Of a stretch of 64,000 bases of DNA, positions 3,954-57,100 are shown in pieces (positions within the stretch are counted from its first letter, which is position 1; each line of letters opens with the position of its first letter). The position numbers were made by a program, and so were the translations under genes. The DNA lies in assembly GCA_041674805.1 (NCBI GenBank), contig JBAYVA010000002.1, forward strand, positions 83,234-147,233, written 5' to 3'. The stretch is from Candidatus Magasanikiibacteriota bacterium (lineage in GTDB: Bacteria > Patescibacteriota > Patescibacteriia > Magasanikbacterales > UBA922). The notes under the pieces are model-generated. The model did no database searches and had not been told where the DNA came from. It worked only from the letters and a program-made list of their open reading frames with translations.

Positions 3954-6900
3954 TTATTTAGAAATAAATTTTTTAATCAATTTTTTTATTTTTGAAAAAA
4001 TATTTTCTCCATTACTTTTCAAAAAAAGTCCAAACAAAATAGCAGTAAAACCACCAGCTGTAGCTGTTAAATATTTTTCAACAATATCCGCGTTGTCTTG
4101 CTCTTTGGCTTTTTCTTTTTTTGTTACCAAATCTTCACTAACACCTGTTTTAATAATATCATTTTGATCACGTGGCAACAATTGATATTCTGTTTTTGTT
4201 TGATGAAGTAGTCCAGTAATACTTACTAAATTACCTTCTTCAAATATATCTTTTTTTATACCAGCTCCTCTCTTAAAATATACTTTTATTTCCTCAGTTC
4301 CATCGTCTACATACATATAAGAACTTTTTATTTCTGTAATTTCACCACTTACCAAAATAAGACTACCTTCATATTGTTCCCCCACATCTTCTAATTCCAA
4401 GACTCTACCAATTGGTAATTCACTATGTCCCAATTTTTTTATATCATTTTTTTCTTTTAATTTTATTCTAGTTTCACCAGAAGTTTCTGTAATTTCTCCC
4501 ATAACTTCTATTTTGTCTCCCCTTTTTAAATCTGGAAAATCTTTACTAAACATATAAATTTGTACACCAGCATTTTCAGAAACTATATAAAAAATTTGTG
4601 TACCCATTATACCTGGTTCTACTGCTACTGTACCTGTCACACTAATCATATCACCCAAATCTTCATCACGTATTTTTTCTAAACTAGTGTTTATAACTGC
4701 TTTCACTGAATTACTCTTACTTTTTACTATTTTAACGGATTTTACTTCTGTTATTTCTTCTACAAAATTTACCTCACCAGGGCTAATAATTTTATTCCAA
4801 ATCCAGTTACCTTCACTATTACGAACATAAGAGGCTCCTTCTATTACATCATCAAATCTTACTTCCATTATAATAGTTCCATCAGGATACAAAAGACGCA
4901 CAGAATCACTAGTGTTATTCAAAGCCAACTTTGTATCTTGGCGACCAAAGACTTTATATTCTTTAGCTTTTATCAAAGTATTAGCTCCTACAGTATAAGC
5001 TTTTGATCCACCTTCTTCATCATCAATTTTTAAACCCGAAATATCAACATCTTCTTCTGTAGGATTGTGAATTTCAATAAATTCAGTAGTATCTGAACCT
5101 ACTGGATTTGGCAAAATCTCTGAAATGTACAAAACAGATATATCACTTGTTCCAGCATAACCACCCACAAAATCTTGAGACAATTTTACACTTAAAACAA
5201 CATCCTTTTTACTTTCATTACTACCATCACTTACTGTCAAAGATACAGTATAAACTCCTTGTTGCAAAAATTTATGTTCTACACTCGCGCCATCTTCATC
5301 AGTCCCATCAGCAAAATCCCAATGAAATTTTAAATCTTTTCCTTCTGGACTAACAGTATCAGAAGCATCAAATTTCACCCATTCATTTACAGCTACTTCG
5401 GTATCTACATCAAGTGCAATAATTGGTGCTGCACTTTTACCTTCTACTATGTTTTTGCTTCCAGCAGTAATTTTACTACTCCATACCCAAGTAGCATCAT
5501 CTTGCCTCACATAACTAAAAGAATCACTAGCACTACCAGGATAACTTACACTATTTACGATTGCCCCATTTGGAGAAAATAATTTTACTTCATCTCCTCC
5601 TGTATTATTTAGAGCTATTTGTGTCATAGTTCTTTTGAAAACAATGAATTCATTTGCTTTCAATACACCTTGTTTTATTGTATATTTTTTCTTACTAGAA
5701 TCAGATAATTGCCAATCTTTCAAATCAATAGTTTCTGTACCTTTATTCCAAATTTCAATAAACTCATCATCACTATCACTACCTGGAGGATTTGGATAAA
5801 TTTCATTCAAAACTATGTTTGTTTGCAAAGAAAAAATTTCTTGTTTTTCCAAATCTTCAGCTTTTAAAGATAAAACATTTTTTTGTCCCCTAGTAATAGT
5901 ATCTGTAATTATAAAATCATAATAATCATTATCAGCATCTTGTCCATCTGTTTTTCTTATCAACGAATATGGATCACTTGCCACAGCAGCATTATCATAA
6001 GTATTACCATCATCCCAATTGCCATAAGTAACTTTATCTATTTCTTTTTTACTAGGATCTAATAATAACAAAATATCACCAGCATTATTGAGACTTCCTT
6101 TTGGTTCCTCAATTACAAAAAAACCTTTAGGCAAAATAGTCCCTGTCAAAATCGTAATTGTTTCACTACCATCTTCCAAAGACCAATCATTTAAATCAAT
6201 AATTTCTGAAGTGTTGTTATATATTTCTACGAATTCTTTTTCTCCATCACTAGGATCAGAAACCAACTCGTTTATGACCAAATCTCGTGCATTATAATTT
6301 TTTGTTGTTACTTCAGAACTAGAAGACGAACCTCCACCAGAACTAGAAACTGGAATATTTTTAATAATATTGACTTCACCTGGCGTTGGTTCTGTGGTAA
6401 TAGAAAAATCATTTTTATTATTTCCCGTGTTTTGACCATCCACGATTCTCGCCACAGAATAAGGATCACTGTGTGCAGGAGCGTTGTCTGAAATATCTTC
6501 ATCAAAAAAATCTATCCAATCACCAAAACGCACTGTGTCTATCAAATTACCAGAATTATCATACAAAAAAATACCATCACCATCATTGTTCAATTTACTA
6601 GACAAAATATTTACTCGCAAAAAACTTTTTGTTTCCAAAATATTATCCAAAACCAAAATTTTTTTTGTGCTACTACTACTTTTGTCACCTTCGTGCACTT
6701 CCCAATCTTTCAAATCAATAGTAGAGGTAGAATTATTATATATTTCTACCCATTCATTTTCACCAGCCACAGGATCACTTACAAATTCATTAATAACTAT
6801 TTCATAATTAGGAATAGTATTTGTCGTGGTAGTAGTACTTTCAAAATTTTCTACTATACTAAAGTTAAAAATGTCACTTGCAAAATCATTTTTATCATCT

Positions 6901-7697
6901 ATAACTTTTAATTCAAGACTAAAGTTGCCAATATCAGAAAAAATATATGAAAAAAAAGAACTAGTTGATAAAAGTATATTATCAAACAACCAATTATACT
7001 CTACTATTTGGCCATCACTATCACTAGAAGTACTACCATCAAAATCTACAGCTTTTGATTTTTGAAAAATGTTTCCACTTGTAACAATTTTGGCAACAGG
7101 TTTTTGATTTTGAATATCATTATTATCTAAAGACCAATAATTTTTTTGTCCTACCGAATTATTGTCTGGATGTTCTTGCCAATTATCAATATTATTTATT
7201 GGCTGAAATACATCCATTCTTTCCAAAGAATGATTATTTTGGATGGCTTTATAAACAAAATTTTCTATGAAACTATCATCTTTTTTTAAACCTATTTCTT
7301 CTCCACCCTTGTTCAAAGTTGTCCAAGAACTGTCCAAAATTAAAGAAGAAAAATTTGGATATCTCTCAAAAAAATTCAAATCATTTTGAGTAATTACAGC
7401 GTATCCTTTTGGAGCTAAAATAAAAGTTTGAAACAAACTTTTTTCACTAATATTTAAACTATGATTAGTATCTGCTTCCCAAAATTTCCAGCCAGTCAAA
7501 TCCATACTTTCATCACCTTTGTTATAAATTTCTATCCACTGAAAACCACTTTCAGCACAACCAGTAGGACAAATTTCTGTAATCACCACATCATTATCAG
7601 AACCAAAAACAAAATTTTTAAATAAAAAAACACTCAATATAAGTGCTAAAAAAAACAAACTAAATTTTCTTAATTTAATAAAAAAAATTTTAATCAT
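3954..7697 (-). CDS. Giant extracellular protein (1247 aa) with N-terminal signal/TM, about five lamin-tail-domain (LTD) repeats, a PKD domain, tandem C-terminal OB-fold-like domains, and a C-terminal TM anchor with a basic tail
   Basis: LTD-type repeats: NEFVSDPVAGENEWVEIYNNSTSTIDLKDW, VINELVSDPSDGEKEFVEIYN, LNEIYPNPPGSDSDDEFIEIWN, ISEILPNPVGSDTTEFIEIHN. A PKD-like segment: KFDASDTVSPEGKDLKFHWDFADGTDEDG...YTVSLTVSDGS. The C-terminus has an OB-like pair (VTGTVAVEPGIMGTQIFYIVSENAGVQIY and SLILVSGEITEIKSS) followed by FTAILFGLFL and KKLIKKFISK. Confidence 0.7.
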   Translation of the reverse strand: MIKIFFIKLRKFSLFFLALILSVFLFKNFVFGSDNDVVITEICPTGCAESGFQWIEIYNKGDESMDLTGWKFWEADTNHSLNISEKSLFQTFILAPKGYAVITQNDLNFFERYPNFSSLILDSSWTTLNKGGEEIGLKKDDSFIENFVYKAIQNNHSLERMDVFQPINNIDNWQEHPDNNSVGQKNYWSLDNNDIQNQKPVAKIVTSGNIFQKSKAVDFDGSTSSDSDGQIVEYNWLFDNILLSTSSFFSYIFSDIGNFSLELKVIDDKNDFASDIFNFSIVENFESTTTTTNTIPNYEIVINEFVSDPVAGENEWVEIYNNSTSTIDLKDWEVHEGDKSSSSTKKILVLDNILETKSFLRVNILSSKLNNDGDGIFLYDNSGNLIDTVRFGDWIDFFDEDISDNAPAHSDPYSVARIVDGQNTGNNKNDFSITTEPTPGEVNIIKNIPVSSSGGGSSSSSEVTTKNYNARDLVINELVSDPSDGEKEFVEIYNNTSEIIDLNDWSLEDGSETITILTGTILPKGFFVIEEPKGSLNNAGDILLLLDPSKKEIDKVTYGNWDDGNTYDNAAVASDPYSLIRKTDGQDADNDYYDFIITDTITRGQKNVLSLKAEDLEKQEIFSLQTNIVLNEIYPNPPGSDSDDEFIEIWNKGTETIDLKDWQLSDSSKKKYTIKQGVLKANEFIVFKRTMTQIALNNTGGDEVKLFSPNGAIVNSVSYPGSASDSFSYVRQDDATWVWSSKITAGSKNIVEGKSAAPIIALDVDTEVAVNEWVKFDASDTVSPEGKDLKFHWDFADGTDEDGASVEHKFLQQGVYTVSLTVSDGSNESKKDVVLSVKLSQDFVGGYAGTSDISVLYISEILPNPVGSDTTEFIEIHNPTEEDVDISGLKIDDEEGGSKAYTVGANTLIKAKEYKVFGRQDTKLALNNTSDSVRLLYPDGTIIMEVRFDDVIEGASYVRNSEGNWIWNKIISPGEVNFVEEITEVKSVKIVKSKSNSVKAVINTSLEKIRDEDLGDMISVTGTVAVEPGIMGTQIFYIVSENAGVQIYMFSKDFPDLKRGDKIEVMGEITETSGETRIKLKEKNDIKKLGHSELPIGRVLELEDVGEQYEGSLILVSGEITEIKSSYMYVDDGTEEIKVYFKRGAGIKKDIFEEGNLVSITGLLHQTKTEYQLLPRDQNDIIKTGVSEDLVTKKEKAKEQDNADIVEKYLTATAGGFTAILFGLFLKSNGENIFSKIKKLIKKFISK

Positions 7698-14122: not shown

Positions 14123-15250
14123 TTATTTTTTAATAGGCATAACGATATACAAGTAATTGTCTTTTTCTTTTGGTCTAAAAATACAAGGAGCATCAGCACT
14201 ATTTACACCAAATTCAATGTTTTCACCTTCCATGTGTGCTAAACCATCCAACACATAGCTGTGGTTTAATAAAATGGAATTTTCTTCACCAATTACTTCA
14301 GCATCAACTTCAGAAGTATGTTCTCCAGCTTGAGTACTGGAAGAAGAAACTCCTACATTTTTTTTGCTTGGACTAAGCTCAAAAGAAACAGCATTGATAC
14401 CACCTGACGTAAACAAACTCGCTGCTTTGATTTTGTTGACCATAACACTTAGCGGAAAAGCAGCTGTTGTTTTAAAATTGTTTGGAATAATTTGTGTATA
14501 ATCTGGATAACGGCCTTCAATCAAACGACTAGTCATTTCAAAATTTCCATAACGAATAGCTATTTGATTATCACTTACCCAAACACGAACAATATCTTCA
14601 CCGCCATGACTTTTGGCAATTGTCAAAAGACGATTTATTTCATAAGCTACGCGTGCTGGTACAATACAGTGCACATTTTGAATTTCACCTTGTTTAATTT
14701 TTATTTTAGCTTCTGCCAAACGATAAGAATCTGTTGCTGCTAATACTAATCCATCATATTTTTCTGAAAAAAATGAAAAATAAATACCTGAAAATTCTGG
14801 TCTTACTTCGTTTTTGGAAACAGCTATAATAACTTTGCCAATAGCTTCTTTCAAATCATCAACTTGAACAACATAAGAATTTTTTTCTTCCACTTCTGGT
14901 AAAATTGGATAATCTTCATCTGTTGATCCTTTGATTTTAGTGCTAGAATTACCTGAAGTTATGATTAATTCATTGCCTTTTTGGTCTATTTCTACTTGTT
15001 CGCTTGTCAATAACTTAACATAATCTGCCAAAGTTTTTGCTGGAACTGTAAAATTTCCAGTAGTTTCTACTTTGGCTCTAATTTGTGTTTTTACTGCAAT
15101 TTCTAAGTTAGTACTGCTAATTTCAATACCTGAATCATTGGCTTTGATAAGTACGTTACTCAAAATTGGTAAGTTTGTATGTTTACTAGCTAAGGAACTC
15201 ACAAGACTCAAGGAATATTCTAAGTTTTCTTTTGTACATGTGAATTTCAT
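14123..15250 (-). CDS. dnaN: DNA polymerase III beta sliding clamp
   Basis: 375 aa. N-terminus MKFTCTKENL...LPILSNVLIKA is typical of DnaN, and the gene is immediately downstream of dnaA. Confidence 0.85.
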   Translation of the reverse strand: MKFTCTKENLEYSLSLVSSLASKHTNLPILSNVLIKANDSGIEISSTNLEIAVKTQIRAKVETTGNFTVPAKTLADYVKLLTSEQVEIDQKGNELIITSGNSSTKIKGSTDEDYPILPEVEEKNSYVVQVDDLKEAIGKVIIAVSKNEVRPEFSGIYFSFFSEKYDGLVLAATDSYRLAEAKIKIKQGEIQNVHCIVPARVAYEINRLLTIAKSHGGEDIVRVWVSDNQIAIRYGNFEMTSRLIEGRYPDYTQIIPNNFKTTAAFPLSVMVNKIKAASLFTSGGINAVSFELSPSKKNVGVSSSSTQAGEHTSEVDAEVIGEENSILLNHSYVLDGLAHMEGENIEFGVNSADAPCIFRPKEKDNYLYIVMPIKK

Positions 15251-15764: not shown

Positions 15765-17150
15765 TTAAACAGCGTTGGAATATAATCTTTGTTTTATCAT
15801 TTCCAAATCTTGTTTGAGCTTTAAGTCGTTGTCTATACTTTGTAATATTTTACTGTGTGCATGCATAGCTGTAGTATGATCTCTACCACCTAGTTCATCA
15901 CCTATATTTGGATAAGAAAGTTTCAACTCTTCTCTTAGCAAATACATGATAATTTGACGTGGAAAAGCTAATTTTTTTTCACGACTTTTGCCGAGTACAT
16001 CATCGATAGAGATATCAAAATAACCAGCTACGACATTTATTATTTCACGAGGAGTTAAAGAACGTTTCATACTTTGTTCTTCAAAACTAGATAATACTTG
16101 TTTAATAGTTTCTTCAGTTGCTTCAATATTTTTTAGTTCGTGATAAGCAATAATTTTGTTGAGAGCGCCTTCTAATTCACGAATATTATTTTTAACATTT
16201 GTCGCAATAAATTGGATAAGTTTTCCTTCAATTTTGAAATCTTTTTCCTGAGCTTTTCTTTGTAGAATAGCTAAACGAGTTTCTAAGTCAGGAGGAGAAA
16301 TATCAGCAATCATACCCCATTCAAATCTACTGCGTAAGCGATCTTCTAAAGCAGGTATGGCTTTTGGTGGTCTATCACTTGTTAAAACAACTTGTTTACC
16401 TTGTTGGTGTAATTCGTTGAAAGTGTGAAAAAATTCTTCTTGTGTTTGTTCTTTGCCACCAATAAATTGAATATCATCAATCAAAAGTAAATCAACATTT
16501 CTATATCTATCTTTGAATTCTTTGGCTCTACCTTCTTTTACAGAAGAAACAAATTCATTGGTAAATTTTTCAGAACTAACGTATAAAATTTTTGTTTGAG
16601 GATTGGCCTCAAGCATAGTATGGCCAATCGCTTGTATAAGATGAGTTTTTCCCAAACCTACTCCTCCATAAATGAATAAAGGGTTGTAAGAATCTCCAGG
16701 ACGACGAGCTACGGCTTGAGCTGCAGCATGAGCAAGTTCATTACCTTTACCTACGACAAAAGTATCAAAAGTATATTTTGGATTCAAACCAAATTGCTGA
16801 ACCAAAGTATTTTTTCTTTGGTTATTGTATAAAGGGTTTGTAATAGTAGAAATTTGTGGTAACTTCTCTGACATTTTACATTCAGATTCTTTGATATTTT
16901 TTATATTTTCTACTATATAATCTACTTTTTTGATAGGTTTGCCTGTCACTCTTTCTAAGATCTTGATTATTTGAGAGTGATGCTTCTTTTCTAACCAACT
17001 CTTTGTAAAGGAGTTAGGAACACAAATATTCACTAATCCTTCTTCATAATTTGCTATTCCTGTGTTTTTGAACCATGTCGTAAATTGAGCTTTGGATAAA
17101 CTTAGCTCAAATTCGGCCAAAACAGCTTGCCAGATTTCGTGAGTGGTCAT
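15765..17150 (-). CDS. dnaA: Chromosomal replication initiator protein DnaA
   Basis: 461 aa. Walker A GGVGLGKTHL, sensor and box VII motifs, and the C-terminal DNA-binding helix (LSYPNIGDELGGRDHTTAMHA). Confidence 0.9.
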   Translation of the reverse strand: MTTHEIWQAVLAEFELSLSKAQFTTWFKNTGIANYEEGLVNICVPNSFTKSWLEKKHHSQIIKILERVTGKPIKKVDYIVENIKNIKESECKMSEKLPQISTITNPLYNNQRKNTLVQQFGLNPKYTFDTFVVGKGNELAHAAAQAVARRPGDSYNPLFIYGGVGLGKTHLIQAIGHTMLEANPQTKILYVSSEKFTNEFVSSVKEGRAKEFKDRYRNVDLLLIDDIQFIGGKEQTQEEFFHTFNELHQQGKQVVLTSDRPPKAIPALEDRLRSRFEWGMIADISPPDLETRLAILQRKAQEKDFKIEGKLIQFIATNVKNNIRELEGALNKIIAYHELKNIEATEETIKQVLSSFEEQSMKRSLTPREIINVVAGYFDISIDDVLGKSREKKLAFPRQIIMYLLREELKLSYPNIGDELGGRDHTTAMHAHSKILQSIDNDLKLKQDLEMIKQRLYSNAV

Positions 17151-17978: not shown

Positions 17979-18362
17979 TTGTATATGTTAGCCAAAGAAT
18001 TTAGATTAAGAGGTAAAAAAGAATGGGAAGTTTTGTTTGCAGAAGGTAACTTTGCTTCGGCAAATTTTTTGACGGTCAAATTTTGGAAGATAGAAGTAAA
18101 TAAATTTCCTCGTAGAAAGTTTCAAGTATCAGATCTTAAGATAGGCTTTAGTGTTGGTTTAAAAATAAGTAAAAGTGCTGTAAAACGTAATAGTGTTAAA
18201 AGAAAAATGAGTGAAGTTGTGAGATTGTTATTAAAAGACAATAAAATTAAATCAGGTTATTTGATTGGATTCTTGGCTAAAAATAATATTTTAGATGTTG
18301 ATTACTCACAAATAGAAGCAGATATTATTAATTGTCTGAAAAAATCTAAACTATTAATCTAA
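17979..18362 (+). CDS. rnpA: RNase P protein component
   Basis: 127 aa basic protein directly downstream of rpmH, with an RnpA-like fold (KEFRLR...FSVGLKISKSAVKRNSVKR). Confidence 0.75.
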   Translation: MYMLAKEFRLRGKKEWEVLFAEGNFASANFLTVKFWKIEVNKFPRRKFQVSDLKIGFSVGLKISKSAVKRNSVKRKMSEVVRLLLKDNKIKSGYLIGFLAKNNILDVDYSQIEADIINCLKKSKLLI

Positions 18363-27861: not shown

Positions 27862-28830
27862 TTGTTTATGATTATATTTCTATACGGCAAAGACACTTAC
27901 CGTAGTAAACAACAACTCAAAAAAATGGTTGAGAAGTTCAAAGTTGAACGTGACCCACAGGGCTACAATGTGGTTGATTTGGATTGTGAAAAAGAAGATA
28001 AAAATAATATTTTACAACAAATGCTCACCTCCCCTTTTTTGGCAGAAAAGAAAATGGTGATTTTGAAAAACTTATTGACAACGACAGAACACAAAGATTT
28101 TTTGAAAGAAATAAAAAAAAGAATAGAGGAAAATAATTTTCCAGAAAATAATATTATTGTTTTTTGGGAGAATACTGATATTTTCAAAAATAAAAATTCC
28201 AAAGAATTATCTGAAGTTTTGAAGACAGAAAAATTTGCACAATTTTTTGGAGAATTAAAAGGTTTGGATTTATCAAATTGGATTAAACAAGAAGTTTCTT
28301 TACGTGGTGGAAAAATTGAGGTACCTTCTTTGAATTATTTGTTACAAAACTTTTCTTTGGATATGTGGTCTTTATCAAATTTATTGGATCAATTGTTATC
28401 ATATAATACAGCAATTGATTTAGTGACTACTCAAAAATTTGTAGAAGAAAAAATTGATGATAATATTTTTAATCTCGTAGATGCTATTGTCGCTGGCCAA
28501 AAAAATAAAGCTTTCAAAATGATTCGCAAACAATATGAAAAAGGAGAAGATGCACAGTTTATTTTTGCCATGTTGTTGCGTCAGTTTAGAATTTTGCTTG
28601 AGATGCGTGAAATATATGAGAAACAAGATAGTATTCATAGTAATGATTTAGCAAAGATGCTCGGACTTCATCCTTTTGTAGTTACCAAATCACTCGTTTT
28701 TGTAAAAAGATATACTTTGTCTCATTTGAAAAATATTTATTTAAAATTATTGGAAATGGATACCAAAACAAAAACTGGTCAGGGAGACCAGTCTTTATTG
28801 ATTGATGTTTTGGTGGGAACAACAATGTAA
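27862..28830 (+). CDS. holA: DNA polymerase III delta subunit (clamp-loader subunit)
   Basis: 322 aa. Begins IIFLYGKDTYR... with a HolA-like helical layout. Located directly after polA. Confidence 0.55.
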   Translation: MFMIIFLYGKDTYRSKQQLKKMVEKFKVERDPQGYNVVDLDCEKEDKNNILQQMLTSPFLAEKKMVILKNLLTTTEHKDFLKEIKKRIEENNFPENNIIVFWENTDIFKNKNSKELSEVLKTEKFAQFFGELKGLDLSNWIKQEVSLRGGKIEVPSLNYLLQNFSLDMWSLSNLLDQLLSYNTAIDLVTTQKFVEEKIDDNIFNLVDAIVAGQKNKAFKMIRKQYEKGEDAQFIFAMLLRQFRILLEMREIYEKQDSIHSNDLAKMLGLHPFVVTKSLVFVKRYTLSHLKNIYLKLLEMDTKTKTGQGDQSLLIDVLVGTTM

Positions 28831-28857: not shown

Positions 28858-28889
28858 AAATAAGGAAAAGGTAATTCCTTATTTTTTTT
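28858..28889. terminator. Bidirectional terminator between convergent holA and the GGDEF gene
   Basis: TAAGGAA-AAGGTAA-TTCCTTA followed by TTTTTTTT. Confidence 0.6.
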
Positions 28890-29883
28890 CTACTAATTTT
28901 TCATAACACTCTAGAGCATGTCCTACTATTTCTTTTTCTGATTTATCTTTTAGTACTTCTTGCATAGGACGCATGACCTGTCTTATGTAAGAAAGTTTTT
29001 CTTTTTCTCCTTCTTCAAAATAAGTTTCTGTTTCTTCTGATGAAATTATTCTATCAGCTGAAGATGTATCATCTTTATCTTCTAAAAGATTCTTTGTTCT
29101 GATTAGTTTAGAAATTTCTCCTGCTTTGTCAGCCTCTTCACGCTTGTTTTTGAACAAATCTTTTTCACTTACCATTTCTGGAGCAACTACAGTATAGCCA
29201 ACACTTATAGTTTGTTTGTTTCCATCAGGTCTTTCACTGTTTTGTTCAATATTGGTTACCATTCTGGCTAAAACATTTTTTACATCAGTAACTTTGTCTT
29301 GTGGCATTGTCAAAAACATACCATATTCATCTCCACTGAATCTGATCCCTACGTCTCCTTTGGCTAGTGAAAGAGTAGCTTCCAAATTTTTGGCAACTGT
29401 TTTAAGTAACTCGTCTCCTCTTTCGTGGGTGAATGAATCATTTATTTTTTTAAAATTATCCAAATCAAAAGTCACAAAGACAATAACATTGTTACTACCT
29501 TGTATTTCAGTCATTTTTCTTTTAAATTCCTGTTGGGCACCATATCGGCTAAATAACTCTGGAGTCAAATTTTCTTGACCTTCTTTTATGGTACTTTCTG
29601 TTAGTTTTTTTAATTCAGTTAAAGACGCTGTTAGAGCTTTGTCTTGAAATTCTGGAGAAATTTCTACAGTTTCACCCTTTTTAGATTTTCTTGTTTTTTC
29701 ACCAGCAATCAATCTTTTGTAGTTTTTGGCAAACCAGTTGCGTAATTCTTCTTGATTTTGTTTAGTAAGATCTTTTTCATCAATAGTGTTGAAGTAATTA
29801 TCTAAAGCTTCATTTATACCTTTATTTGTTATAGTTTCGTCACCAAACAATATCTCTCTAGATTGGGGTGTTGTTTCACTCAT
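28879..29883 (-). CDS. GGDEF-domain protein (diguanylate-cyclase fold) with a degenerate SGDEY active-site motif and an uncharacterised N-terminal domain
   Basis: The cyclase core reads IVFVTFDLDNFKKINDSFTHERGDELLKTVA...GDVGIRFSGDEYGMFL, where the canonical sequence is RxGGDEF. Confidence 0.7.
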   Translation of the reverse strand: MSETTPQSREILFGDETITNKGINEALDNYFNTIDEKDLTKQNQEELRNWFAKNYKRLIAGEKTRKSKKGETVEISPEFQDKALTASLTELKKLTESTIKEGQENLTPELFSRYGAQQEFKRKMTEIQGSNNVIVFVTFDLDNFKKINDSFTHERGDELLKTVAKNLEATLSLAKGDVGIRFSGDEYGMFLTMPQDKVTDVKNVLARMVTNIEQNSERPDGNKQTISVGYTVVAPEMVSEKDLFKNKREEADKAGEISKLIRTKNLLEDKDDTSSADRIISSEETETYFEEGEKEKLSYIRQVMRPMQEVLKDKSEKEIVGHALECYEKLVEKK

Positions 29884-29904
29884 ATAAGTATCTTTTAAAA
29901 AATA

Positions 29905-29940
29905 AAAATCCTGACTTATTATAGTCAGGATTTATTTTAT
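29905..29940. terminator. Intrinsic terminator hairpin
   Basis: AATCCTGACT-TATTATA-GTCAGGATT followed by a T-run. Confidence 0.6.
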
Positions 29941-29948
29941 ATGTTATT

Positions 29949-30287
29949 TTATTTTTTTGCAACTTTTTTTGTGATTTTCTTTTTAGTCGCAGGTTTTTTT
30001 GCTTTAGCTTTTGCTGGAACTACAGTTTTTTGGTCAATTTTCAATTTTGAAGCAAGTCTAGATAAGTAACGAGAAGCTGTATTTGCTTTCAAAACACCTT
30101 TTTTTACAGCTTTGTCTAGTGTTTTTTGAGCTAAGCGAATTTTTTCACTTACTTCTTTTTCACCAGATAAAACGGCTTTGCGAGCTGTTTTCAAAGCATC
30201 TTTGTAAGCTTTTTTGAAAACTTTGTTTTCTACTTCACGTTTTTTTGCTTGACGCAATGCTTTTTTAGCATTTTCTAGTATAGGCAT
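29949..30287 (-). CDS. rpsT: Ribosomal protein S20 with a Lys/Ala-rich C-terminal tail
   Basis: MPILENAKKALRQAKKR...NKVFKKAYKDALK core, followed by AKAKAKKPATKKKITKKVAKK. Confidence 0.75.
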   Translation of the reverse strand: MPILENAKKALRQAKKREVENKVFKKAYKDALKTARKAVLSGEKEVSEKIRLAQKTLDKAVKKGVLKANTASRYLSRLASKLKIDQKTVVPAKAKAKKPATKKKITKKVAKK

Positions 30288-35368: not shown

Positions 35369-35440
35369 GCCCCTGTAGTTCAGTGGATAGAACAAGACAC
35401 TCCTAACGTCTAGACACATGTTCGATTCATGTCAGGGGCA
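35369..35440 (+). tRNA. tRNA-Arg (anticodon CCT)
   Basis: Acceptor GCCCCTG/CAGGGGC, D-arm GTTC..GAAC, anticodon loop CTCCTAA, T-arm ACATGTTCGATTCATGT. Confidence 0.75.
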
Positions 35441-36043: not shown

Positions 36044-36889
36044 TCATGTTTCACATGAAACTTGATCCAAATGGCTGAAAATATTGAGTGTTTGTACAGG
36101 CTTACTTGTTTTGTATTTTTTGGTAGTACGAATATTTTTATGGCCAAGTATTTTTTGAAGTTGTTTTTCATCGATTCCCCTTTCAAGCATTTCTTTACTA
36201 AAGCTGTGTCGTAAAGATTGAAAAGTTATTTTTTTAGTTATTTTGGCACGTTTTAGGGCTTCTGTGAAAGCTTTTTCAACAGATCTGATACTTAGTTGTT
36301 TATTTTGTGGGTTTATAAAAACAAAATCATTCATTTTTTTGAAAGCGACAAATCTTTTCAATTCATTTTTTATTGTCTGAGGTAATATAGTTTCTCTATT
36401 TTCTTTAGTTGATTTGTTGTTTAGGGTAATAATGTTGTTTTCAAATTGTAAATTTTTGACTTTTATATCTATAATCTCACTTATTTTTAATCCTGAACCA
36501 TAAGATAATAAAAAAATGAGACAATGTTTTTGATTTTTGGTATTTTCTATTATTTTCTCAAATTGTTTTTTGTTCAAAGTATTTATCTTGTTTGTATTTG
36601 TTTTAAAAAAAATTATAGACACTGTTTGTTTTTTGAAATTTTTGTAATAAAATGACAAAATGTTTAAAATTAAATTTTTTGTTTGATTTGATTTTTTTTG
36701 TTGAGTTTTCAAAAATAGTTTTATTGATGTATTTTCGTCAGATATTTTTTTTTTATTTAAAAAAAATAAATATTTTTCTAAATAAAAAAGGTAGGATTTA
36801 ATAGTTGTTGGCTTATAGTTTTTTTGTAGTAAATCAGTTTTTATTTTTGATAAAATATTTTTTTCTGAAATTTTTTTTTGTTTTTTCAT
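36044..36889 (-). CDS. Tyrosine site-specific recombinase/integrase (XerC/D-like phage-integrase family)
   Basis: C-terminal catalytic region FQSLRHSFSKEMLERGIDEKQLQKILGHKNIRTTKKY, following the R...H-x-x-R...H...Y pattern. It is adjacent to a tRNA gene. Confidence 0.75.
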   Translation of the reverse strand: MKKQKKISEKNILSKIKTDLLQKNYKPTTIKSYLFYLEKYLFFLNKKKISDENTSIKLFLKTQQKKSNQTKNLILNILSFYYKNFKKQTVSIIFFKTNTNKINTLNKKQFEKIIENTKNQKHCLIFLLSYGSGLKISEIIDIKVKNLQFENNIITLNNKSTKENRETILPQTIKNELKRFVAFKKMNDFVFINPQNKQLSIRSVEKAFTEALKRAKITKKITFQSLRHSFSKEMLERGIDEKQLQKILGHKNIRTTKKYKTSKPVQTLNIFSHLDQVSCET

Positions 36890-37888: not shown

Positions 37889-38455
37889 ATGAACAAAAAA
37901 ATAAAATCCTTACTTATTGGTGGTAATTTGTGGTATTTAGGTGAGGGCATGTTTGGTCCTTTGTTAGCTGTTTTTACTGAAAAAATTGGTGGTGATGTTC
38001 TTGATATAAGTTATGCTTGGTCGATTTATCTTTTAGTTATGGGTTTGCTAACAATGTTTGTTGGTAAGTTTTCTGATAAATCTGATAAAGCAAAAATAAT
38101 GGTATTTGGTTATGCTTTGAATGCTTTTTTTACCTTTGCTTATTTGTTTGTAGATTCATCTTTGAAACTTTTCGTTGTGCAGGCTGGTTTGGGTATATCA
38201 GCTTCTTTGGCTGCTCCAACTTGGTATTCATTGTATGCTAAGTATGAAGATAAAAATAAAGATGGTATGGAATGGGGTTTGGCAAGTGGTAGTTCGAATA
38301 TTATTACAGGTATTGCAATTTTAATTGGAGGTATTATTTTGAAATTTTATTCTTTTAATATTTTATTTTGTGTAATGGGTACTTTGCAGGTTGTGGCTAC
38401 TATTTATCAATTCCAAATTTTGAAAAAAAAGAAATTATTATTTTTTAAAAGATAG
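37889..38455 (+). CDS. Six-TM membrane protein resembling half of an MFS transporter, possibly a gene fragment
   Basis: 188 aa with about 6 TM helices and no partner half nearby. Confidence 0.35.
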   Translation: MNKKIKSLLIGGNLWYLGEGMFGPLLAVFTEKIGGDVLDISYAWSIYLLVMGLLTMFVGKFSDKSDKAKIMVFGYALNAFFTFAYLFVDSSLKLFVVQAGLGISASLAAPTWYSLYAKYEDKNKDGMEWGLASGSSNIITGIAILIGGIILKFYSFNILFCVMGTLQVVATIYQFQILKKKKLLFFKR

Positions 38456-48065: not shown

Positions 48066-49232
48066 TTAGGCAAAAGAAAGTCCTGGTTCCAACATCATTT
48101 CTTCATTTTCTATTTTTGTTTTTTGAAAAATATTTTGGTTGGCATAAAATTTTTCATTGGTTGCCATTAGTCTAATGTTTTTACCATTTTCTACTAAATA
48201 CTGAATACCGTTACCACAAATTTTGTTGTCAGCTACATCTTTTTGACCAATGATAACCCATTTTAGTTGTGGCATATCAGATATAAGATGTGAGCATGGT
48301 GTATATTTGCCATTACGATAGGTGCATGGTTCCATTGTACAATAAAGCATGTATTCGTGTTCTTCCCAATCAGGAGTATTATTTTTTAGCATAGACAAAG
48401 CATCTTGTTCAGCATGAACATGTCCACGTCTGTATCCCCAAGCAGAAATTTCGAAAGTTTCAGAATCTACCAATGTGGCTCCTACGCCATAGCCGTGTCT
48501 AGATTTATTTGAAACATCTTCAGCTAATCGTTCAGTGATAGTATAAAATCTACGGTTTACGTCAGCCCAAAAAACATCTTTGAAACGACTAGACATACTA
48601 CAAATTACTTTATTATTTTCTATATAAGTATCAAAAAGGTAGGAATAATCATATTTTTCAAAAATATCATTTTTTTGTCTATAATTACTTTTATCATTTA
48701 CACAATAAATGCCTGTAATTTTTGTATCTGAGCTTATTGACTCAACTGCTTTTACCATATTTACAATAGTTCCTCCAGTTGAAGCCATACAGTCTACAAT
48801 AGCAATTTTTTTATTTTTTAGAGCTTTACTCATATACATTGTACGTTCGTAATAGCCTGTTTGTTGTGAAAAATCAACACATTCTATATCATAATGAAAT
48901 GTTTTGGCAATAATCAAAGGAAGTCGTAATTGTGCAGCGATCAAAGTAGCAATGCCTATACCATCAGATTCTATAGACAGTATAACTTCGGTATCTTTTG
49001 GTATCATTTCTGCTAAATATTTTGCCAAAGTGTTATAAATTCCTTGATTAGCTAGAGTAAAACCTTTGAAAGGATATATAAAATATTGATAATTAGAAAC
49101 AGTACCACCTTTACTATCAGTTGTACGTATTTGTGCTTCACGAAATAAATTCATAGCATCACCTACATCTTTTTTTATGGCTATTATTTCTTGATATGTT
49201 TGTTGAAGTTCTTTTTCAAGAAGATTTAACAT
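48066..49232 (-). CDS. Two-domain fusion: N-terminal type-I phosphoribosyltransferase domain plus C-terminal RibD-type (riboflavin-pathway-like) cytidine-deaminase-fold domain
   Basis: PRPP-binding loop KIAIVDCMASTGGTIV. Deaminase zinc motifs HVHAEQDAL and TMEPCTYRNGKYTPC. The long spacer between the two Cys matches the RibD pattern EPC-x8/9-PC, not the PCxxC of dCMP deaminase or TadA. Confidence 0.6.
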   Translation of the reverse strand: MLNLLEKELQQTYQEIIAIKKDVGDAMNLFREAQIRTTDSKGGTVSNYQYFIYPFKGFTLANQGIYNTLAKYLAEMIPKDTEVILSIESDGIGIATLIAAQLRLPLIIAKTFHYDIECVDFSQQTGYYERTMYMSKALKNKKIAIVDCMASTGGTIVNMVKAVESISSDTKITGIYCVNDKSNYRQKNDIFEKYDYSYLFDTYIENNKVICSMSSRFKDVFWADVNRRFYTITERLAEDVSNKSRHGYGVGATLVDSETFEISAWGYRRGHVHAEQDALSMLKNNTPDWEEHEYMLYCTMEPCTYRNGKYTPCSHLISDMPQLKWVIIGQKDVADNKICGNGIQYLVENGKNIRLMATNEKFYANQNIFQKTKIENEEMMLEPGLSFA

Positions 49233-50643: not shown

Positions 50644-50866
50644 AGTTTATAGACTTTACAAAGGTTCAATGTTATGTTATTTTAACATATGCGGAAGATA
50701 TTGACAAAAGTAGCAAAATGTGCTACACTACTCCGTTTATTACACATATATAAAAAGGCTTTATTTAGCCGATTAATTCATAATTTACAAATGGTTGTGA
50801 TTTCCATAAACCATTATAATGTGTAGTCATTTTAATTTATACATATTAAGTCTAATATATTCGTCT

Positions 50867-53788
50867 ATGAAAAAGAACTTTTTCGCTAAACTAGGCCATT
50901 TTTTCCTGGTTTCAGCTGTTTTATTCAATGGTTTTGGTGTAGCCTTTGTGAAGGCTGATGTTGTAGAAGTTTTGGGTATGTCTCCAAATACAGCAACTTT
51001 GTCTGAGGGTGACATTAACCCTATTTCTTTAGTAACAATTTCTAATTCATCTACTAGTACTATAAATCTAACATTTACTATGTCAGGTGAAGCTGTTAGA
51101 AGTATAGATGGTAGTGGTGATTATGAATTGTTTGTTGGGGAAGGTTCTCCATTTGTAGTTGTTGATACAAACTTAATAAGTGTGCCTGCAAATGATTCTG
51201 TCATCTTTCCTATAAATATTATAAATGACACAGTATCAGAAAATGCAGAATCTTTTGGTTTGACATTTGAAACAGCTAGTTATGATGATGAAAATAGAAC
51301 ACCTGTAGAAGGTTTTAGTTCTCGTGGTGCTATAAATTTTACTATCAATGATAATGATATTACACCTCCTACTTTTGATACTATTGTCCCTAGTCCATTT
51401 TCAAGAAATGAAAGTGATAATTTTGGTGGTATTGCTACTTTTATAAATAATGCTAGTACAACTTTAGATTTTCATTTTGAAATTAGTGGAACAGCTTCTA
51501 CATCTGATTATATAATTGAAACAACTAGTCGTAGTATAAATGAAAATGGAGATGTTATGGCGGTGCCTAATAGTGTGGATTTAGAAAATGGTATAATTAG
51601 TGGGGTTACAGGAAATGAAAAAAGAAGATTTAATTTTAAACCAGTAGAGGACACAGAAGTAGAAATTGATGAAACAGTTATTATTACATTGAAATATGCT
51701 ACTGATATTGAACAAAGAGTTTATGATTTTGCAGATATTTCTTACACTACTATTATTAAAGATAATGATACTGCATCCACTACTACCACAGCTAACGTCA
51801 CATTTTCTTTTTCAACTTCTACTATTAATGAAAATTCTGGTAATGTAAATGTTGCTAATGTTATTAATAATGAAAATCAAGATGTATCTGTGAAATTTAC
51901 ATTTTCTGGCACAGCAGTATATGGCACAGACTATACTTTGAGATCAGGAACTGGTACTTCTATTTTTGGTAATGGTACAGAAGCAGTACTTTTGATAGGT
52001 ATTAATAGTAGTAGTAGTTTTCCTTTGACTCTGAATACAGTTGATAGTGATAAAACTGTTGAAATTACTCTTACACAAGTAAATTTTGCGGATAATTCAA
52101 CAACAACATCTTTCACTGCAGGAAATGTTACAACACATACACTTACTATCAAAAATGTTCCTACATCAGGTGAAAATAATATTCCAACAATAAAAACACC
52201 GATAGCCACACAATATATAGATCTTTATGTTACTTCTACATTAACTATTAATAATGAAATATTAAAGAATTTATTTTTTGATTTAGATACTAATGATAGA
52301 GTTGGTATTAGTTTGACTAATAATACAGATGCTACTGTTGTAACAACAACATCAGACATAGAATTTTCTAGTTTAGTATTAACAGGTTTAAAAGTTGGAA
52401 CAAGTACTATTGAACTTACTGGTGATGATCATCGTGGTGGTATTGTTACCTCAACTTTCGATGTAATCGTTACTGATTCTACTCCTGTTGAGGGAAATAA
52501 TGCTCCAACATCAACTGTAATAGATGATAAAACATTGGAGGTTGGTCAGACTTTTGATATTATTCCTAGTGTTATTTTTGAAGATGTAGAAGATAGTGAT
52601 GATAAGTTAACTTATGGTGTAGAAATTAGTGCTGGTTCTGTTGTTTCTGTAACAACAACAAATTTTACAAATTCTTGGGCATATACTTTTACTGCTGAAA
52701 GTGTAGGTACTTCTACAATTACTCTTAGTGCAACTGATTTGGGTGGTCTTAGTACAAGTACATCATTTAAGGTAACTGTCACAGAAGATGTAACACCTAT
52801 ATTAATAAAAGAAATAGTTAATCAAACTTTAAAAGTAGGTGAAAGTGTAGTTTTGAACTTAAATGATTATTTTTCAGATCCAAACGAAGATGTCTTGTCT
52901 TTTTTAACAAGTATTAACGTTCCAAATTTAATTACTACAACACTTAATACTGAAACAAATAAATTAACAATTACTGGTGTAGCTATAGGTACAACTCTTA
53001 TGAGTGTTACTGCCTCTGATAGTCAACATAGTGTTTATGATATATTTAATGTCACAGTAAAAGAAAATAATGAAGGTAATACTGATAACAATACCGGTTC
53101 AAGTAACGGCGGTGGTAGTTTATTACCAAACACAGCTCCTCAAGCTTCTATGGTTGTTGGTCAAGAAGTAACTATCGAAGTAAACAAAGAAATTACTTTT
53201 GATGCTAGTAGTAGTGTAGATAAAGAAGGAAACATTAGATTTTATTTCTGGAACTTTGGTGACGGAAGTGATGAAGTATATTACACTGTCCCAACAGTCA
53301 AATATACTTATACTAAAATAGGTAATTACACTTTGAATATCAAAGTAAAAGATGCTTACGGTGCTGAGAGTAGTGCGCAAGTAAAGGTAAAAGTTGTAGC
53401 TGGCAAAGCTTCTACAAATACGGGAACTCCAAATACTAATACTGAAAGTGGAACTAAAACTGAAACTGAAACTACAACTTCTACTTCAACAACTGATACC
53501 CCAACTCCTGTAGAAGAAACTGGAAGTACTGGTAGTACAAATAATAATACTAACAATAACACTTCTGCTAATAATACTGAAGAAGAAGCAATAACAACTG
53601 AGGAAGAAAATACTTCTATAGAAGAAGAGACTACTTCTGAAAATACTGAAGAAGAAATTACTGAAGAAGTACCTGCTGAAACAACAGAAGAATTACCAAC
53701 TTGGATCAAGATCATCTTTGGCAGTGGTGCTCTAGCTGCTATTGCTGGCGCTGGACTTGCTATCAATAGAGTGAGAAAAAATGTGTAA
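50867..53788 (+). CDS. Giant surface protein A (about 973 aa from the MKKNFF start): signal peptide, Ig/cadherin-like beta-sandwich repeats, PKD domain, Thr/Glu-rich acidic stalk, and a C-terminal ELPTW plus TM plus RVRKN anchor
   Basis: Signal peptide MKKNFFAKLGHFFLVSAVLFNGFGVAFVKA. PKD segment ITFDASSSVDKEGNIRFYFWNFGDGSDEVYYTVPTVKYTYTKIGNYTLNIKVKDAYGAES. C-terminus EELPTWIKIIFGSGALAAIAGAGLAINRVRKNV. The track ORF starts 16 codons earlier at a non-conserved ATG. Confidence 0.7.
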   Translation: MKKNFFAKLGHFFLVSAVLFNGFGVAFVKADVVEVLGMSPNTATLSEGDINPISLVTISNSSTSTINLTFTMSGEAVRSIDGSGDYELFVGEGSPFVVVDTNLISVPANDSVIFPINIINDTVSENAESFGLTFETASYDDENRTPVEGFSSRGAINFTINDNDITPPTFDTIVPSPFSRNESDNFGGIATFINNASTTLDFHFEISGTASTSDYIIETTSRSINENGDVMAVPNSVDLENGIISGVTGNEKRRFNFKPVEDTEVEIDETVIITLKYATDIEQRVYDFADISYTTIIKDNDTASTTTTANVTFSFSTSTINENSGNVNVANVINNENQDVSVKFTFSGTAVYGTDYTLRSGTGTSIFGNGTEAVLLIGINSSSSFPLTLNTVDSDKTVEITLTQVNFADNSTTTSFTAGNVTTHTLTIKNVPTSGENNIPTIKTPIATQYIDLYVTSTLTINNEILKNLFFDLDTNDRVGISLTNNTDATVVTTTSDIEFSSLVLTGLKVGTSTIELTGDDHRGGIVTSTFDVIVTDSTPVEGNNAPTSTVIDDKTLEVGQTFDIIPSVIFEDVEDSDDKLTYGVEISAGSVVSVTTTNFTNSWAYTFTAESVGTSTITLSATDLGGLSTSTSFKVTVTEDVTPILIKEIVNQTLKVGESVVLNLNDYFSDPNEDVLSFLTSINVPNLITTTLNTETNKLTITGVAIGTTLMSVTASDSQHSVYDIFNVTVKENNEGNTDNNTGSSNGGGSLLPNTAPQASMVVGQEVTIEVNKEITFDASSSVDKEGNIRFYFWNFGDGSDEVYYTVPTVKYTYTKIGNYTLNIKVKDAYGAESSAQVKVKVVAGKASTNTGTPNTNTESGTKTETETTTSTSTTDTPTPVEETGSTGSTNNNTNNNTSANNTEEEAITTEEENTSIEEETTSENTEEEITEEVPAETTEELPTWIKIIFGSGALAAIAGAGLAINRVRKNV

Positions 53789-54158: not shown

Positions 54159-57100
54159 ATGAAAAATAATTTTTTTGCTAAACTGGGAAACTTTTTTCTG
54201 GTTTCGGCTGTATTGTTCAATGGTTTTGGGGTAGGTTTGGTAAGTGCAGAATATGCAGAAGTTGTCTCTCCCACATTCTCTTTACTTGTTGATAATGTAA
54301 AAGAAGGAAATTTAGGAGAAACAACTACTTATAATGTTGGTGTAAAATATAATGGTCCAGTTTTGGTCTCTGATTATACTGTGGAAGTAATATTTTATAG
54401 TGTTTTAAATGATACTTTTGCTGAATATGGTGTTGATTATGAGGTACCTAATTCTGTGCCTAATTTGGAAGATTCTTCGTATTTTCTTACTTTTACGCCA
54501 GCAACACAAAATGATGAATTGTTTGTTCCTGTAACTGTTATGGGTAACGATACTATTAATAGTTTTAATGTTTTATTCAAATACATTATTTTTACTATAA
54601 AAGGTATTAATATCGACCAACCTGACCAGCTGTTTGGTTTGAGTATTGAAGATGATGATGTTCCTACTATTATTGAACCAATATTTACTCCCGCTACTTC
54701 TGTTGTCTATGAAGGTGTTGCTACAGGAGCTAATGTTACTAAGTTGGTAAACAATAATAATACTGATTTAATTTATACTATTGAACTTACTGGTGATGCT
54801 TTACTCGAACAAGAATTTGGATTGTCTGTTATTGATGAACAAAATATCTCTACACCAATCATGAGTAATTTTTTCAATCTTTCTGTACCAAGAAATTCTA
54901 GTTCTACTTTTTCTGTTCGTACAAATGGTATTTATGATAATTCGTCTTTTGATAATGTTGCAAAACAGACAATTTGGACTGTAACAAATGCGTTTGATGA
55001 GAGTATCTTTATTGATTATGATTTATCTTTAAGTAATATCAACTTTACTTTGGATATAAAAGATGAGGAAAATGATGTAGGTTTTATAAATCCAGCTTCA
55101 TCTGTTGCAGAAGGAATTTCATTGAATGACTCTAATTCATCACTTGTATACAACAATGGTACTGACAATGATGTGTCTTTGACATTTGAACTTTCGGGTA
55201 CGGCATCTTCTTTAACGGATTATACTGTAAGAACAAATGAATTGAGTTCAGGTTCTACTTGGGTAGTACCAAAAAATTCTATTAAATCTTTTCCTGTAGA
55301 TATCTTGAATGTAACTGGTGAAAAAAATTTAGTGTTTACAATTACAAAAATAGATTTATTAAATGACAATGGTACCATTAAAAATGGAAATATTACACCT
55401 ATTTTACCGAATGCACAGACACACACTTTGACAATTCTGGATAATGTTGTACCGCCTGTAAATCATGCACCTGTTGCAATTATGCAACCAATACTTTTGG
55501 GTAATGTTAATGTTGGTTCAAACTCAACCCCTGTTTCATTTTCAACCACTTTTTCAGATCCTGATTCAGATGTACTTACATATAGTGTAGAACTTTCAAA
55601 TCCTGTAATTGCAACATCTCAAATAACAGCAGGTGAGTTGGTACTTACAGGAACAAGTGTCGGTACAACAACAGTAACAATGATGGCTACAGATCCTGAT
55701 GGCTTGAGTGCTAGTACCACGTTTAGTTTGACTGTCGTAGAAAATAATAATGGTGGTGGAAATAATTCTCCAACAGTAAATATTCCAATAGCCACACAAT
55801 ATATTGATCTCTATACTACTTCCACATTAACTATTAATAATGCAATATTGCAGAATTTATTTTCTGATGCTGATGTTAATGACATAGTTGGTATTAGTTT
55901 GACTAATAATACAGATGCTACTGTTGTGACAACAACACCAGGCATAGAATTTTCTAGTTTAATGTTGACAGGTTTGAAAGTCGGTGCAAGTGTTATTGAA
56001 CTTACGGGAGATGATACACATGGTGGTATTGTTACCTCTACTTTTGCGGTAATCGTTAGTGACTCTACTCCTATAGAAGGAAATAATGCTCCTACATTAT
56101 CAACTACAACAGTATTTGTAGATAACGAAATTTCTTTGCAAGAAACATTTGGATCAAATCTTCATCTTTATTTCGAAGATGTTGATGCGGGTGATACATT
56201 AACTTTTTCAGCTACTACAACTGATGCTTCTATAGTGACAAGTGGAATTGACGCATTGGGTCAAATAACACTGACACCACATAATTATGGTACAGTTCAA
56301 GTAATTGTTACTGCCACAGATAATCAAGGTGCTAGTGTCTCTGATGCATTTTCTTTGAAAGTAAATACTCCACCAGAATTAACAGTAAATACTTTAGGAA
56401 ATAAACAAATTGATTTGAAAGTATCATCTAGTTTGTTAATAGATAGTAATACAATTCGTGGTGTTTTTACAGATAGAGATGGAGAAATACTTACTATTTC
56501 TGTAAGTGATAATAGTGATAATACTGTTGTAACAACTACTCTTGGAGAAGATGATTCTCTCACTTTACTTGGTTTAAAAGTGGGAACAAGTACGATTGAA
56601 ATCACTGCTGACGATGGTTATGAAATTACCTCTACTACATTTCTTGTTACGGTTGTAAATTCTACATCTGAAGAAACAGGGAATAATGGTGGCAACTCTG
56701 GCAGTTCAAGTGGATCTAGTGGCGGTGGTGGTTCTGCTCTTCTTTCTAATACAGCTCCTCAAGCTGCTATAACTAATGGTCAAGAAGTAACTGTGGAAGT
56801 AAACAAAGAAATTACTTTTGATGCTAGTCAAAGTACTGACAAAGAAAATAATATTAGATTTTACTTCTGGAACTTTGGTGATGATAGTGATGAAGTATAT
56901 TACACGGTACCAACAGTCAAACATACTTATACTAAAATAAGTAATTACACTTTGATAAGCAAAGTACGTGATGCTTACGGTGCTGAGAGTATTGCTGAAG
57001 TAAAAGTAAAAGTTGTAGCTGCTAAAGGTTCTACAAATACGGGAACTACAAATAATACTTCAAATACTAATACAGAAAGTGAAACTAAAAATGAAACTAC

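Follow-up and report, generated by a model that had tools for sequence, protein, structure and literature searches.

A GGDEF protein with an altered signature motif

When the signature of a diguanylate cyclase domain reads SGDEY instead of GG(D/E)EF, is the protein still an enzyme? The question is posed by a gene in a 64,000-nucleotide stretch of DNA (hereafter the window) from a Candidatus Magasanikiibacteriota bacterium (GenBank assembly GCA_041674805.1, contig JBAYVA010000002.1, positions 83,234 to 147,233). The gene is a complete open reading frame (ORF) on the reverse strand (28879..29883), which starts with an ATG whose methionine is kept in close relatives, and encodes 334 amino acids followed by a stop codon. 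We consider it rather likely, judging from its sequence and that of its relatives, that the product is a soluble diguanylate cyclase able to carry out catalysis, and that it belongs to a lineage-specific subfamily, here referred to as SGDEF. It has a GGDEF fold, retains the residues that handle metal and guanine and the Lys that binds phosphate, is under purifying selection and has been inherited vertically in a fixed slot between rpsT and holA.

A protein identical to the 334-residue product (P0001) is held by NCBI, JGI and ENA; NCBI names it 'GGDEF domain-containing protein [Candidatus Magasanikbacteria bacterium]' and places it on a 317-kb contig. A preliminary description of the window had spoken of a reduced genome of the candidate phyla radiation (CPR), and was right in the CPR attribution because NCBI holds the exact protein as Candidatus Magasanikbacteria. 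It also regarded the GGDEF fold as clear, which is borne out by matches well above the cut-offs: 75.5 bits against 23.8 for Pfam GGDEF (PF00990) over residues 109-249, and 72.9 bits against 37.4 for NCBIfam TIGR00254. None of the equivalog-level cyclase models of NCBIfam matches the window protein.

Serine is the conserved first residue of the family signature

A word-indexed protein search returned four further full-length relatives at 43-90 % identity, followed by generic GGDEF matches; in the window protein and these four the motif is RFSGDE[Y/F]. An exhaustive profile search covering 1.84 billion cluster representatives gave 23 matches below 1e-30 and about 45 representatives (counted at 50 % identity) of 320-440 amino acids that cover nearly the whole profile. 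These share an architecture of N-terminal helical module, GGDEF domain and C-terminal helical hairpin, and a Pfam scan of 43 family members found GGDEF and no second family.

In a family alignment of 47 representatives, the five signature positions are occupied by S in 44, G in 47, D in 47, E in 46 and F in 44, while Tyr at position 5 is confined to P0001-3, which are the window protein and the two relatives nearest to it. The residue two before the signature is His in 39 representatives and Arg in the other 8, the window protein having Arg181, so that the subfamily signature can be written [H/R]-[F/Y]-S-G-D-E-F. Since Ser is conserved in 44 of 47 representatives, Ser183 is not a product of decay, and serine at position 1 is, as far as sequence can tell, the conserved signature of a subfamily that looks catalytically intact.

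Source names, either Magasanikbacteria or 'Patescibacteria group', are known for only a handful of members, and we therefore infer the taxonomic range of the wider family from the similarity of neighbouring genes. On this footing the SGDEF subfamily is most likely small, previously undescribed and confined to Magasanikbacteria-like Patescibacteria. Few members were recovered when the word-indexed database was searched with the family profile. A scan of species-representative genomes with full-length alignment yielded only ordinary proteobacterial and actinobacterial GGDEF genes, picked up via the generic DxDxFKxxND pattern, and was uninformative for the SGDEF family; a profile of the N- and C-terminal modules without the GGDEF core, a search of low sensitivity, found only a fragment of one family member, and no sign of these modules in other proteins.

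The catalytic residues are retained

The best sequence match among solved structures is DgcR of Leptospira biflexa (PDB 6zxm, 6zxb and 6zxc; E-value 1.3e-10). The substrate and metal block of the window protein, D140-L-D142-N-F-K145-K-I-N148-D149-S-F-T-H153-E-R-G-D157 (29413..29466, reverse strand), pairs residue for residue with DiDkFKniNDtyGHeiGD of DgcR and is 91-100 % conserved across the 47 representatives. It lies within DLDNFKKINDSFTHERGDELL (residues 140-160), one of the strings quoted in the preliminary description; the other, RFSGDEY, is likewise present as residues 181-187 (29343-29323). This second string is the active-site hairpin, R181-F-S183-G184-D185-E186-Y187 (29323..29343, reverse strand), and aligns opposite R-F-G-G-E-E-F of DgcR. 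Both flanks of the signature are indeed altered, positions 1 and 5 differing from GG(D/E)EF, with G-D-E intact at positions 2-4.

To assign functions to these residues we used the numbering of PleD, in which the metal ligands D327 and E370 are the first Asp of the DxD motif and residue 3 of the signature, the guanine-recognising N335 and D344 correspond to N148 and D157 here, and K332, K442 and R446 are the basic residues that bind phosphate. The metal acids D140 and D185 are present in all 47 representatives, as are G184 and the guanine-recognising N148; the latter and D157 (91 %; D in 43, N in 4 and S in none) match the N and D of NDtyGHeiGD in DgcR. Conservation stands at 98 % for D142, E186 and the phosphate-binding K145 and K259, and at 96 % for H153. 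At the position of the Arg in GRN, the family has instead Arg278 (96 %) in the motif SxxR278(I/V)(I/V), which follows an insert of about 16 residues, an equivalence drawn by alignment only. The residues compared that contact metal, base and phosphate (D140, D142, K145, N148, D157, D185, E186 and K259) are retained, and the window protein departs only in having Ser for the first Gly, Tyr for the last Phe and Ala for the Arg of the allosteric inhibitory site (I-site).

The I-site, an RxxD motif five residues before the signature, is common but not obligatory in GGDEF cyclases. Alignment to characterised GGDEF proteins, which had been suggested as a check with this site included, shows that RxxD is not present: A174-K-G-D177 (29353..29364, reverse strand) stands opposite RKSD of DgcR, a stretch that is AKSA in 6zxb, an entry for an I-site mutant. 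The I-site Arg is found in 43 of the 47 representatives and is replaced by Ala in P0001-3.

Selection, domain layout and predicted structure

Compared with its counterpart in a relative at about 90-91 % identity (locus L003), the gene has a ratio of nonsynonymous to synonymous substitution rates (dN/dS) of 0.11 overall, with 0.25 in the N-terminal module and 0.08 in both the GGDEF core and the C-terminal extension. It is under purifying selection. An AlphaFold2 monomer model built from the family alignment is confident along its whole length, with a predicted local distance difference test score (pLDDT) of 93.5, a predicted template modelling score of 0.86 and no disordered segment; it consists of a small beta-hairpin with three helices (residues 11-104), a canonical GGDEF core and a two-helix C-terminal hairpin (291-333). 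The fold superposes on ordinary cyclases at 2.0 A. Structural comparison places catalytic GGDEF domains nearest, at 22-26 % identity, versus 12-13 % for the GGDEF domains of the receptors LapD and FimX.

The three parts follow one another along the reverse strand. The N-terminal module (residues 1-104; 29572..29883) comprises a beta-hairpin at 11-18 and helices at 20-32, 41-68 and 77-104, modelled at pLDDT 87-94; it has no counterpart among the PDB matches of the window protein, and is probably a dimerising stalk or a regulatory module. The preliminary description had seen a domain of 140 residues before the GGDEF domain: the region is there, but it is about 104 residues long, since both the match to Pfam and the alpha0 helix of the prediction begin at about residues 109-113. 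The GGDEF domain itself (residues 105-282; 29038..29571) includes the family-specific insert of about 16 residues, situated between the ADxAxxxSK helix and the SxxR(I/V)(I/V) strand. A C-terminal extension of about 52 residues (283-334; 28882..29037), overlooked earlier, forms helices at 291-310 and 316-333 with pLDDT 95-98. Within its sequence …SYIRQVMRPMQEVL… lies Arg305, invariant in 47 of 47 representatives, and the extension (tail LSYIRQVMRPMQEVL…) is the best-conserved block among P0001-5. The hairpin with Arg305 may be a partner-binding or autoregulatory element.

Comparison with characterised GGDEF proteins

Serine at the first signature position has precedents among active enzymes. 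ECA3270 of Pectobacterium atrosepticum, with a natural SGDEF motif, is an active cyclase, as is the AGDEF protein VCA0965 (PMC3974145), and the SGDEF domain of MbaA from Vibrio cholerae makes c-di-GMP in vivo (PMC8079147). ECA3270 and MbaA share with the window protein the replacement of the first Gly by Ser and the retained G-D-E. They are proteobacterial, however, and MbaA is a membrane protein with periplasmic and EAL-type (EVL) domains, whereas the window protein is predicted to be soluble, is 334 residues long, has helical modules of unrelated kind at both ends, carries Tyr at position 5 and lacks the I-site Arg.

DgcR resembles the window protein in its helical linker before the GGDEF domain and in the position-by-position alignment of substrate, metal and hairpin residues. 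It differs in having an N-terminal receiver domain, GGEEF and an RKSD I-site; the receiver is missing from the window protein, where the two motifs are SGDEY and AKGD and a helical hairpin is added at the C-terminus. Long helices before the GGDEF domain are also found in the stalk or coiled-coil cyclases WspR, DgcB (Caulobacter) and SiaD, where they are dimerising; these are good structural matches, and the SiaD model is among the NCBIfam hits of the window protein. The match to these three spans only about 160-190 of the 334 residues, however, leaving the N-terminal beta-hairpin, the first helices and the C-terminal hairpin without counterpart.

On these comparisons, the window protein would dimerise through its N-terminal helical hairpin in the manner of other stalk-type cyclases; with GTP and Mg2+ bound to each of its two subunits, the dimer would make c-di-GMP. 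Feedback inhibition through the RxxD I-site would apply to most family members, whereas the window protein and the two relatives nearest to it would escape product inhibition, because their I-site Arg is gone (AKGD). The window protein is thus a probable active cyclase without product inhibition, as read from its residues.

Several observations weigh against this. Changing the Ala of VCA0965 to Ser abolished its activity (PMC3974145), so tolerance of Ser at position 1 must depend on context, and the isolated cytoplasmic domain of MbaA had no cyclase activity in vitro (PMC8079147). A literature search found no publication on GGDEY or SGDEY motifs, Tyr at position 5 being undocumented in characterised cyclases. 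Lastly, neither a phosphodiesterase nor a receptor domain nor a riboswitch is found in about 84 kb here or about 148 kb of related loci. Pfam scans of the 48 window ORFs of at least 90 amino acids gave no EAL, HD/HD-GYP, PilZ or T2SSE_N (MshEN) domain, and the earlier remark that the window holds no EAL, HD-GYP or PilZ partner stands. Precomputed annotations of the 10-kb flanks contained no partner domains, a six-frame search of the window and 10 kb past each edge found no second GGDEF gene, and Rfam gave only tRNAs, with no c-di-GMP riboswitch, in the window and 148 kb of related and flanking loci. The partner search covered about 84 kb; the contig, itself only part of the genome, is 317 kb long.

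Other assignments were tried and rejected. Hypr GGDEF enzymes, which produce cyclic GMP-AMP (cGAMP), have Ser at the guanine-specifying Asp (the PleD D344 position); a Hypr-type cGAMP synthase does not fit, D157 being present here and Ser never found at this position in the family. A Cas10/mCpol palm cyclase or an anti-phage defence system, marked by a GGDD-type palm and a defence-island setting, was set aside, with no PADLOC match and a housekeeping context. A GdpP/YybT-type protein, with a highly degenerate GGDEF domain joined to PAS and DHH/DHHA1 domains, was set aside too, only GGDEF being detected in 43 of 43 members.

A conserved slot between rpsT and holA

Upstream of the gene lies rpsT, encoding ribosomal protein S20 (29949..30287, reverse strand; Pfam PF01649), and downstream, in convergent orientation, lies holA, encoding the delta subunit of DNA polymerase III (27862..28830, forward strand; PF06144 and PF21694). 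We collected 32 related loci through exact-protein look-ups and a metagenome scan with the family pattern H[FY]SGDEFG. Upstream sequence is available for 27 of them, and 25 of these have the order rpsT, SGDEF gene, convergent holA (exceptions L088/L089 and L099); almost all of the related loci have holA pointing towards the SGDEF gene, and polA and rmuC are usually nearby. Where identity to the proteins of the window is about 47 % for holA and about 55 % for polA, it is only about 30 % for the SGDEF protein. The gene is comparatively fast-evolving, persistently retained and vertically inherited in one lineage. We did not adopt a functional coupling to S20 or to holA and the clamp loader. Synteny in this lineage extends to the neighbourhood as a whole (rmuC, rpsT, holA and polA), so that we read the adjacency mainly as vertical inheritance, and the gene seems to be served by a promoter of its own.

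The rate of change is uneven among close relatives. In L003, the closest relative, the SGDEF protein is 91 % identical to that of the window, above holA (76 %), S20 (76 %) and polA (83 %), whereas in L001, the next closest, it is down to 49 % with holA still at 72 %; this could reflect a burst of divergence or an exchange of alleles. A gene for a 388-residue phosphoribosyltransferase plus cytidine/dCMP-deaminase-like protein, at 48066-49232 (reverse strand) in the window, sits just upstream of rpsT and the SGDEF gene in L085, L087 and L090.

The window has a G+C content of 29-31 %, and its housekeeping genes include dnaA, dnaN, rnpA, polA, holA and rpsT. Since dnaN (14123-15250), dnaA (15765-17150) and rnpA (17979-18362) coincide with the minimum of cumulative GC skew (about 12-16 kb), the window probably spans the replication origin; the SGDEF gene is about 12 kb from dnaA.

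A predicted promoter set against the probable rpsT terminator

The space between rpsT and the SGDEF gene (median 61 nt) follows one design throughout the 26 loci compared (the window, L001, L003, L085, L087, L090-L098, L100, L101, L104-L108, L110-L113 and L116). In the window, promoter and terminator scans of the reverse strand find a -35-like box, TTGCAA (29957..29962), within the last rpsT codons; a -10-like box, TAAAAT (29934..29939); and, abutting it, an 11-bp stem-loop with a run of T (29896..29933, hairpin part 29933-29906), the probable intrinsic terminator of rpsT. Across the loci, TTG(C/A)xA recurs inside the last rpsT codons at equal distance, the TTG being held though the encoded residues alternate between V and L or A and E, and some 17-18 nt downstream of it TA(T/C/A)AAT (TAnAAT) is found in 24 of 26. 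The -10 box lies at distance 0 from the stem in 17 loci and overlaps it by 3-5 nt in 7. A hairpin of 9-16 bp with a T-rich tail occupies the same position in 26 of 26 loci; its 5' arms comprise 20 different 8-nt sequences, all paired, so that the stems covary while the boxes are fixed. These hairpin results come from a hairpin-anchored analysis, RNAalifold on the MAFFT spacer alignment having given no pairs with the 3' arms out of register. No Shine-Dalgarno-like sequence precedes the ATG in any examined locus.

From this arrangement we infer that the SGDEF gene has its own predicted sigma70-type promoter set against the rpsT terminator, and the layout points to terminator and promoter forming one compact unit, with transcription of the downstream gene beginning within the terminator's 5' arm. 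Transcripts of rpsT would end at the hairpin, while the SGDEF promoter would start within its 5' arm; the cyclase mRNA would escape termination because transcripts started there would be without a complete 5' arm.

Alternatives to an active cyclase

The preliminary description had suggested that the protein might be degenerate and, instead of working as a cyclase, serve as a receptor or effector of c-di-GMP, a reading that we now regard as very unlikely. Receptors such as PelD, PopA, LapD and FimX do resemble the window protein in combining a GGDEF fold with a non-canonical signature, here departing at motif positions 1 and 5; in vitro, SGDEF is inactive in some contexts, and most family members keep an RxxD I-site able to bind c-di-GMP. 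It is at this site that PelD- and PopA-type receptors, their catalytic residues lost, bind c-di-GMP (PMC3974145). The window protein, however, retains the catalytic residues and has neither the I-site Arg nor an EAL domain, and all of the catalytic and substrate residues of its active site (A-site) are under purifying selection, unlike those of PelD-, LapD- and FimX-type receptors. The conserved Ser, the cyclase activity of ECA3270 and MbaA and the low identity to LapD and FimX point the same way, and no source of ligand is in view, because the protein is encoded by the only GGDEF gene found in 84 kb. What decides against a receptor is the conservation of catalytic residues under selection together with the absence of the I-site that such receptors use. 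Decay of a non-functional remnant in a reduced genome is essentially excluded: a non-canonical motif and divergence faster than that of the neighbours would be compatible with it, but the ORF is intact in all loci, dN/dS is 0.11, catalytic residues are invariant over deep divergence, and the gene's own promoter is conserved.

We also think it unlikely, if less so than a receptor, that this is a GGDEF-fold enzyme with altered chemistry or role, making another (cyclic) dinucleotide or a linear pppGpG-type product, or binding or hydrolysing GTP to sense growth state. The active site would then be reshaped by the family's H/R-x-S-G-D-E-F hairpin together with the helix that carries Arg305 in the C-terminal part. 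Family-wide changes do lie beside the catalytic hairpin (His for Arg in 39 of 47 and Ser for Gly in 44 of 47), the conserved C-terminal module with its invariant Arg is unmatched, canonical c-di-GMP partners were not found in the window and its 10-kb flanks, and degenerate GGDEF domains with ATPase activity exist, YybT being one (cited in PMC3974145). Set against these, Asn148 and Asp157, which specify guanine, are canonical, as is Arg181 of the window protein, and the model superposes at 2.0 A on ordinary cyclases. An active diguanylate cyclase is the reading that we prefer.

Other features of the window and its surroundings

The window encodes three very large predicted proteins of 989-1247 amino acids (3954-7697, reverse strand; 50819-53788 and 54159-57431, forward strand). 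In the first, five lamin-tail domains are accompanied by PKD repeats and a C-terminus resembling an OB fold; PKD repeats also occur in the other two, with a weak Calx-beta match in the protein at 50819-53788. All three may be surface or adhesion proteins of an episymbiont. About 5 kb past the left edge of the window (L118, 15864-18242) lies a single 792-residue gene with G6PD_N/C, NAD_binding_2 and 6PGD domains, an apparent fusion of glucose-6-phosphate and 6-phosphogluconate dehydrogenases, enzymes of the oxidative pentose-phosphate pathway. A tyrosine recombinase (Phage_integrase plus a SAM-like N domain; 36044-36889, reverse strand) is encoded near a tRNA gene (35369-35440); because the same gene is in the same place in L002 and L003, it is more likely a chromosomal Xer-type recombinase than the integrase of a mobile element. 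An ORF for a major facilitator superfamily (MFS) transporter (37889-38455, forward strand) has 188 residues covering only positions 2-166 of the 347 in MFS_1, and may be a truncated gene or pseudogene.

Significance

The enzyme class, SGDEF variants and the GGDEF annotation of this protein are already known; what is most likely new is a definable subfamily in an unusual host lineage. Current understanding is not overturned, the enzyme being most likely of an ordinary kind. A bolder possibility, to which we give little credence, is that a reduced and probably host-dependent CPR lineage has the SGDEF family as its sole c-di-GMP-type synthase and is without canonical EAL/HD-GYP turnover or PilZ-type receptors, the N-terminal module and Arg305 hairpin of the family forming a built-in effector or partner-binding device. 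If true, nucleotide signalling would run through a circuit that is minimal or unconventional, or the protein would have a GTP-dependent function outside signalling; either would be hard-wired beside rpsT and holA near the replication origin.

The placing of a predicted promoter against the rpsT terminator offers an example of regulatory compaction in a small genome. The family is also a natural test case of which GGDEF deviations are tolerated in catalysis: Ser stands at position 1 family-wide, one clade has Tyr at position 5, and in most members His takes the place of the preceding Arg. Little has been explored of second-messenger signalling in CPR/Patescibacteria, and our searches of the literature turned up no work on the GGDEF proteins of these bacteria. 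Compact, soluble and single-copy, with a confident model and a fixed genomic slot, the SGDEF family provides a tractable way into the question of if, and by what means, c-di-GMP is used in ultra-small bacteria.
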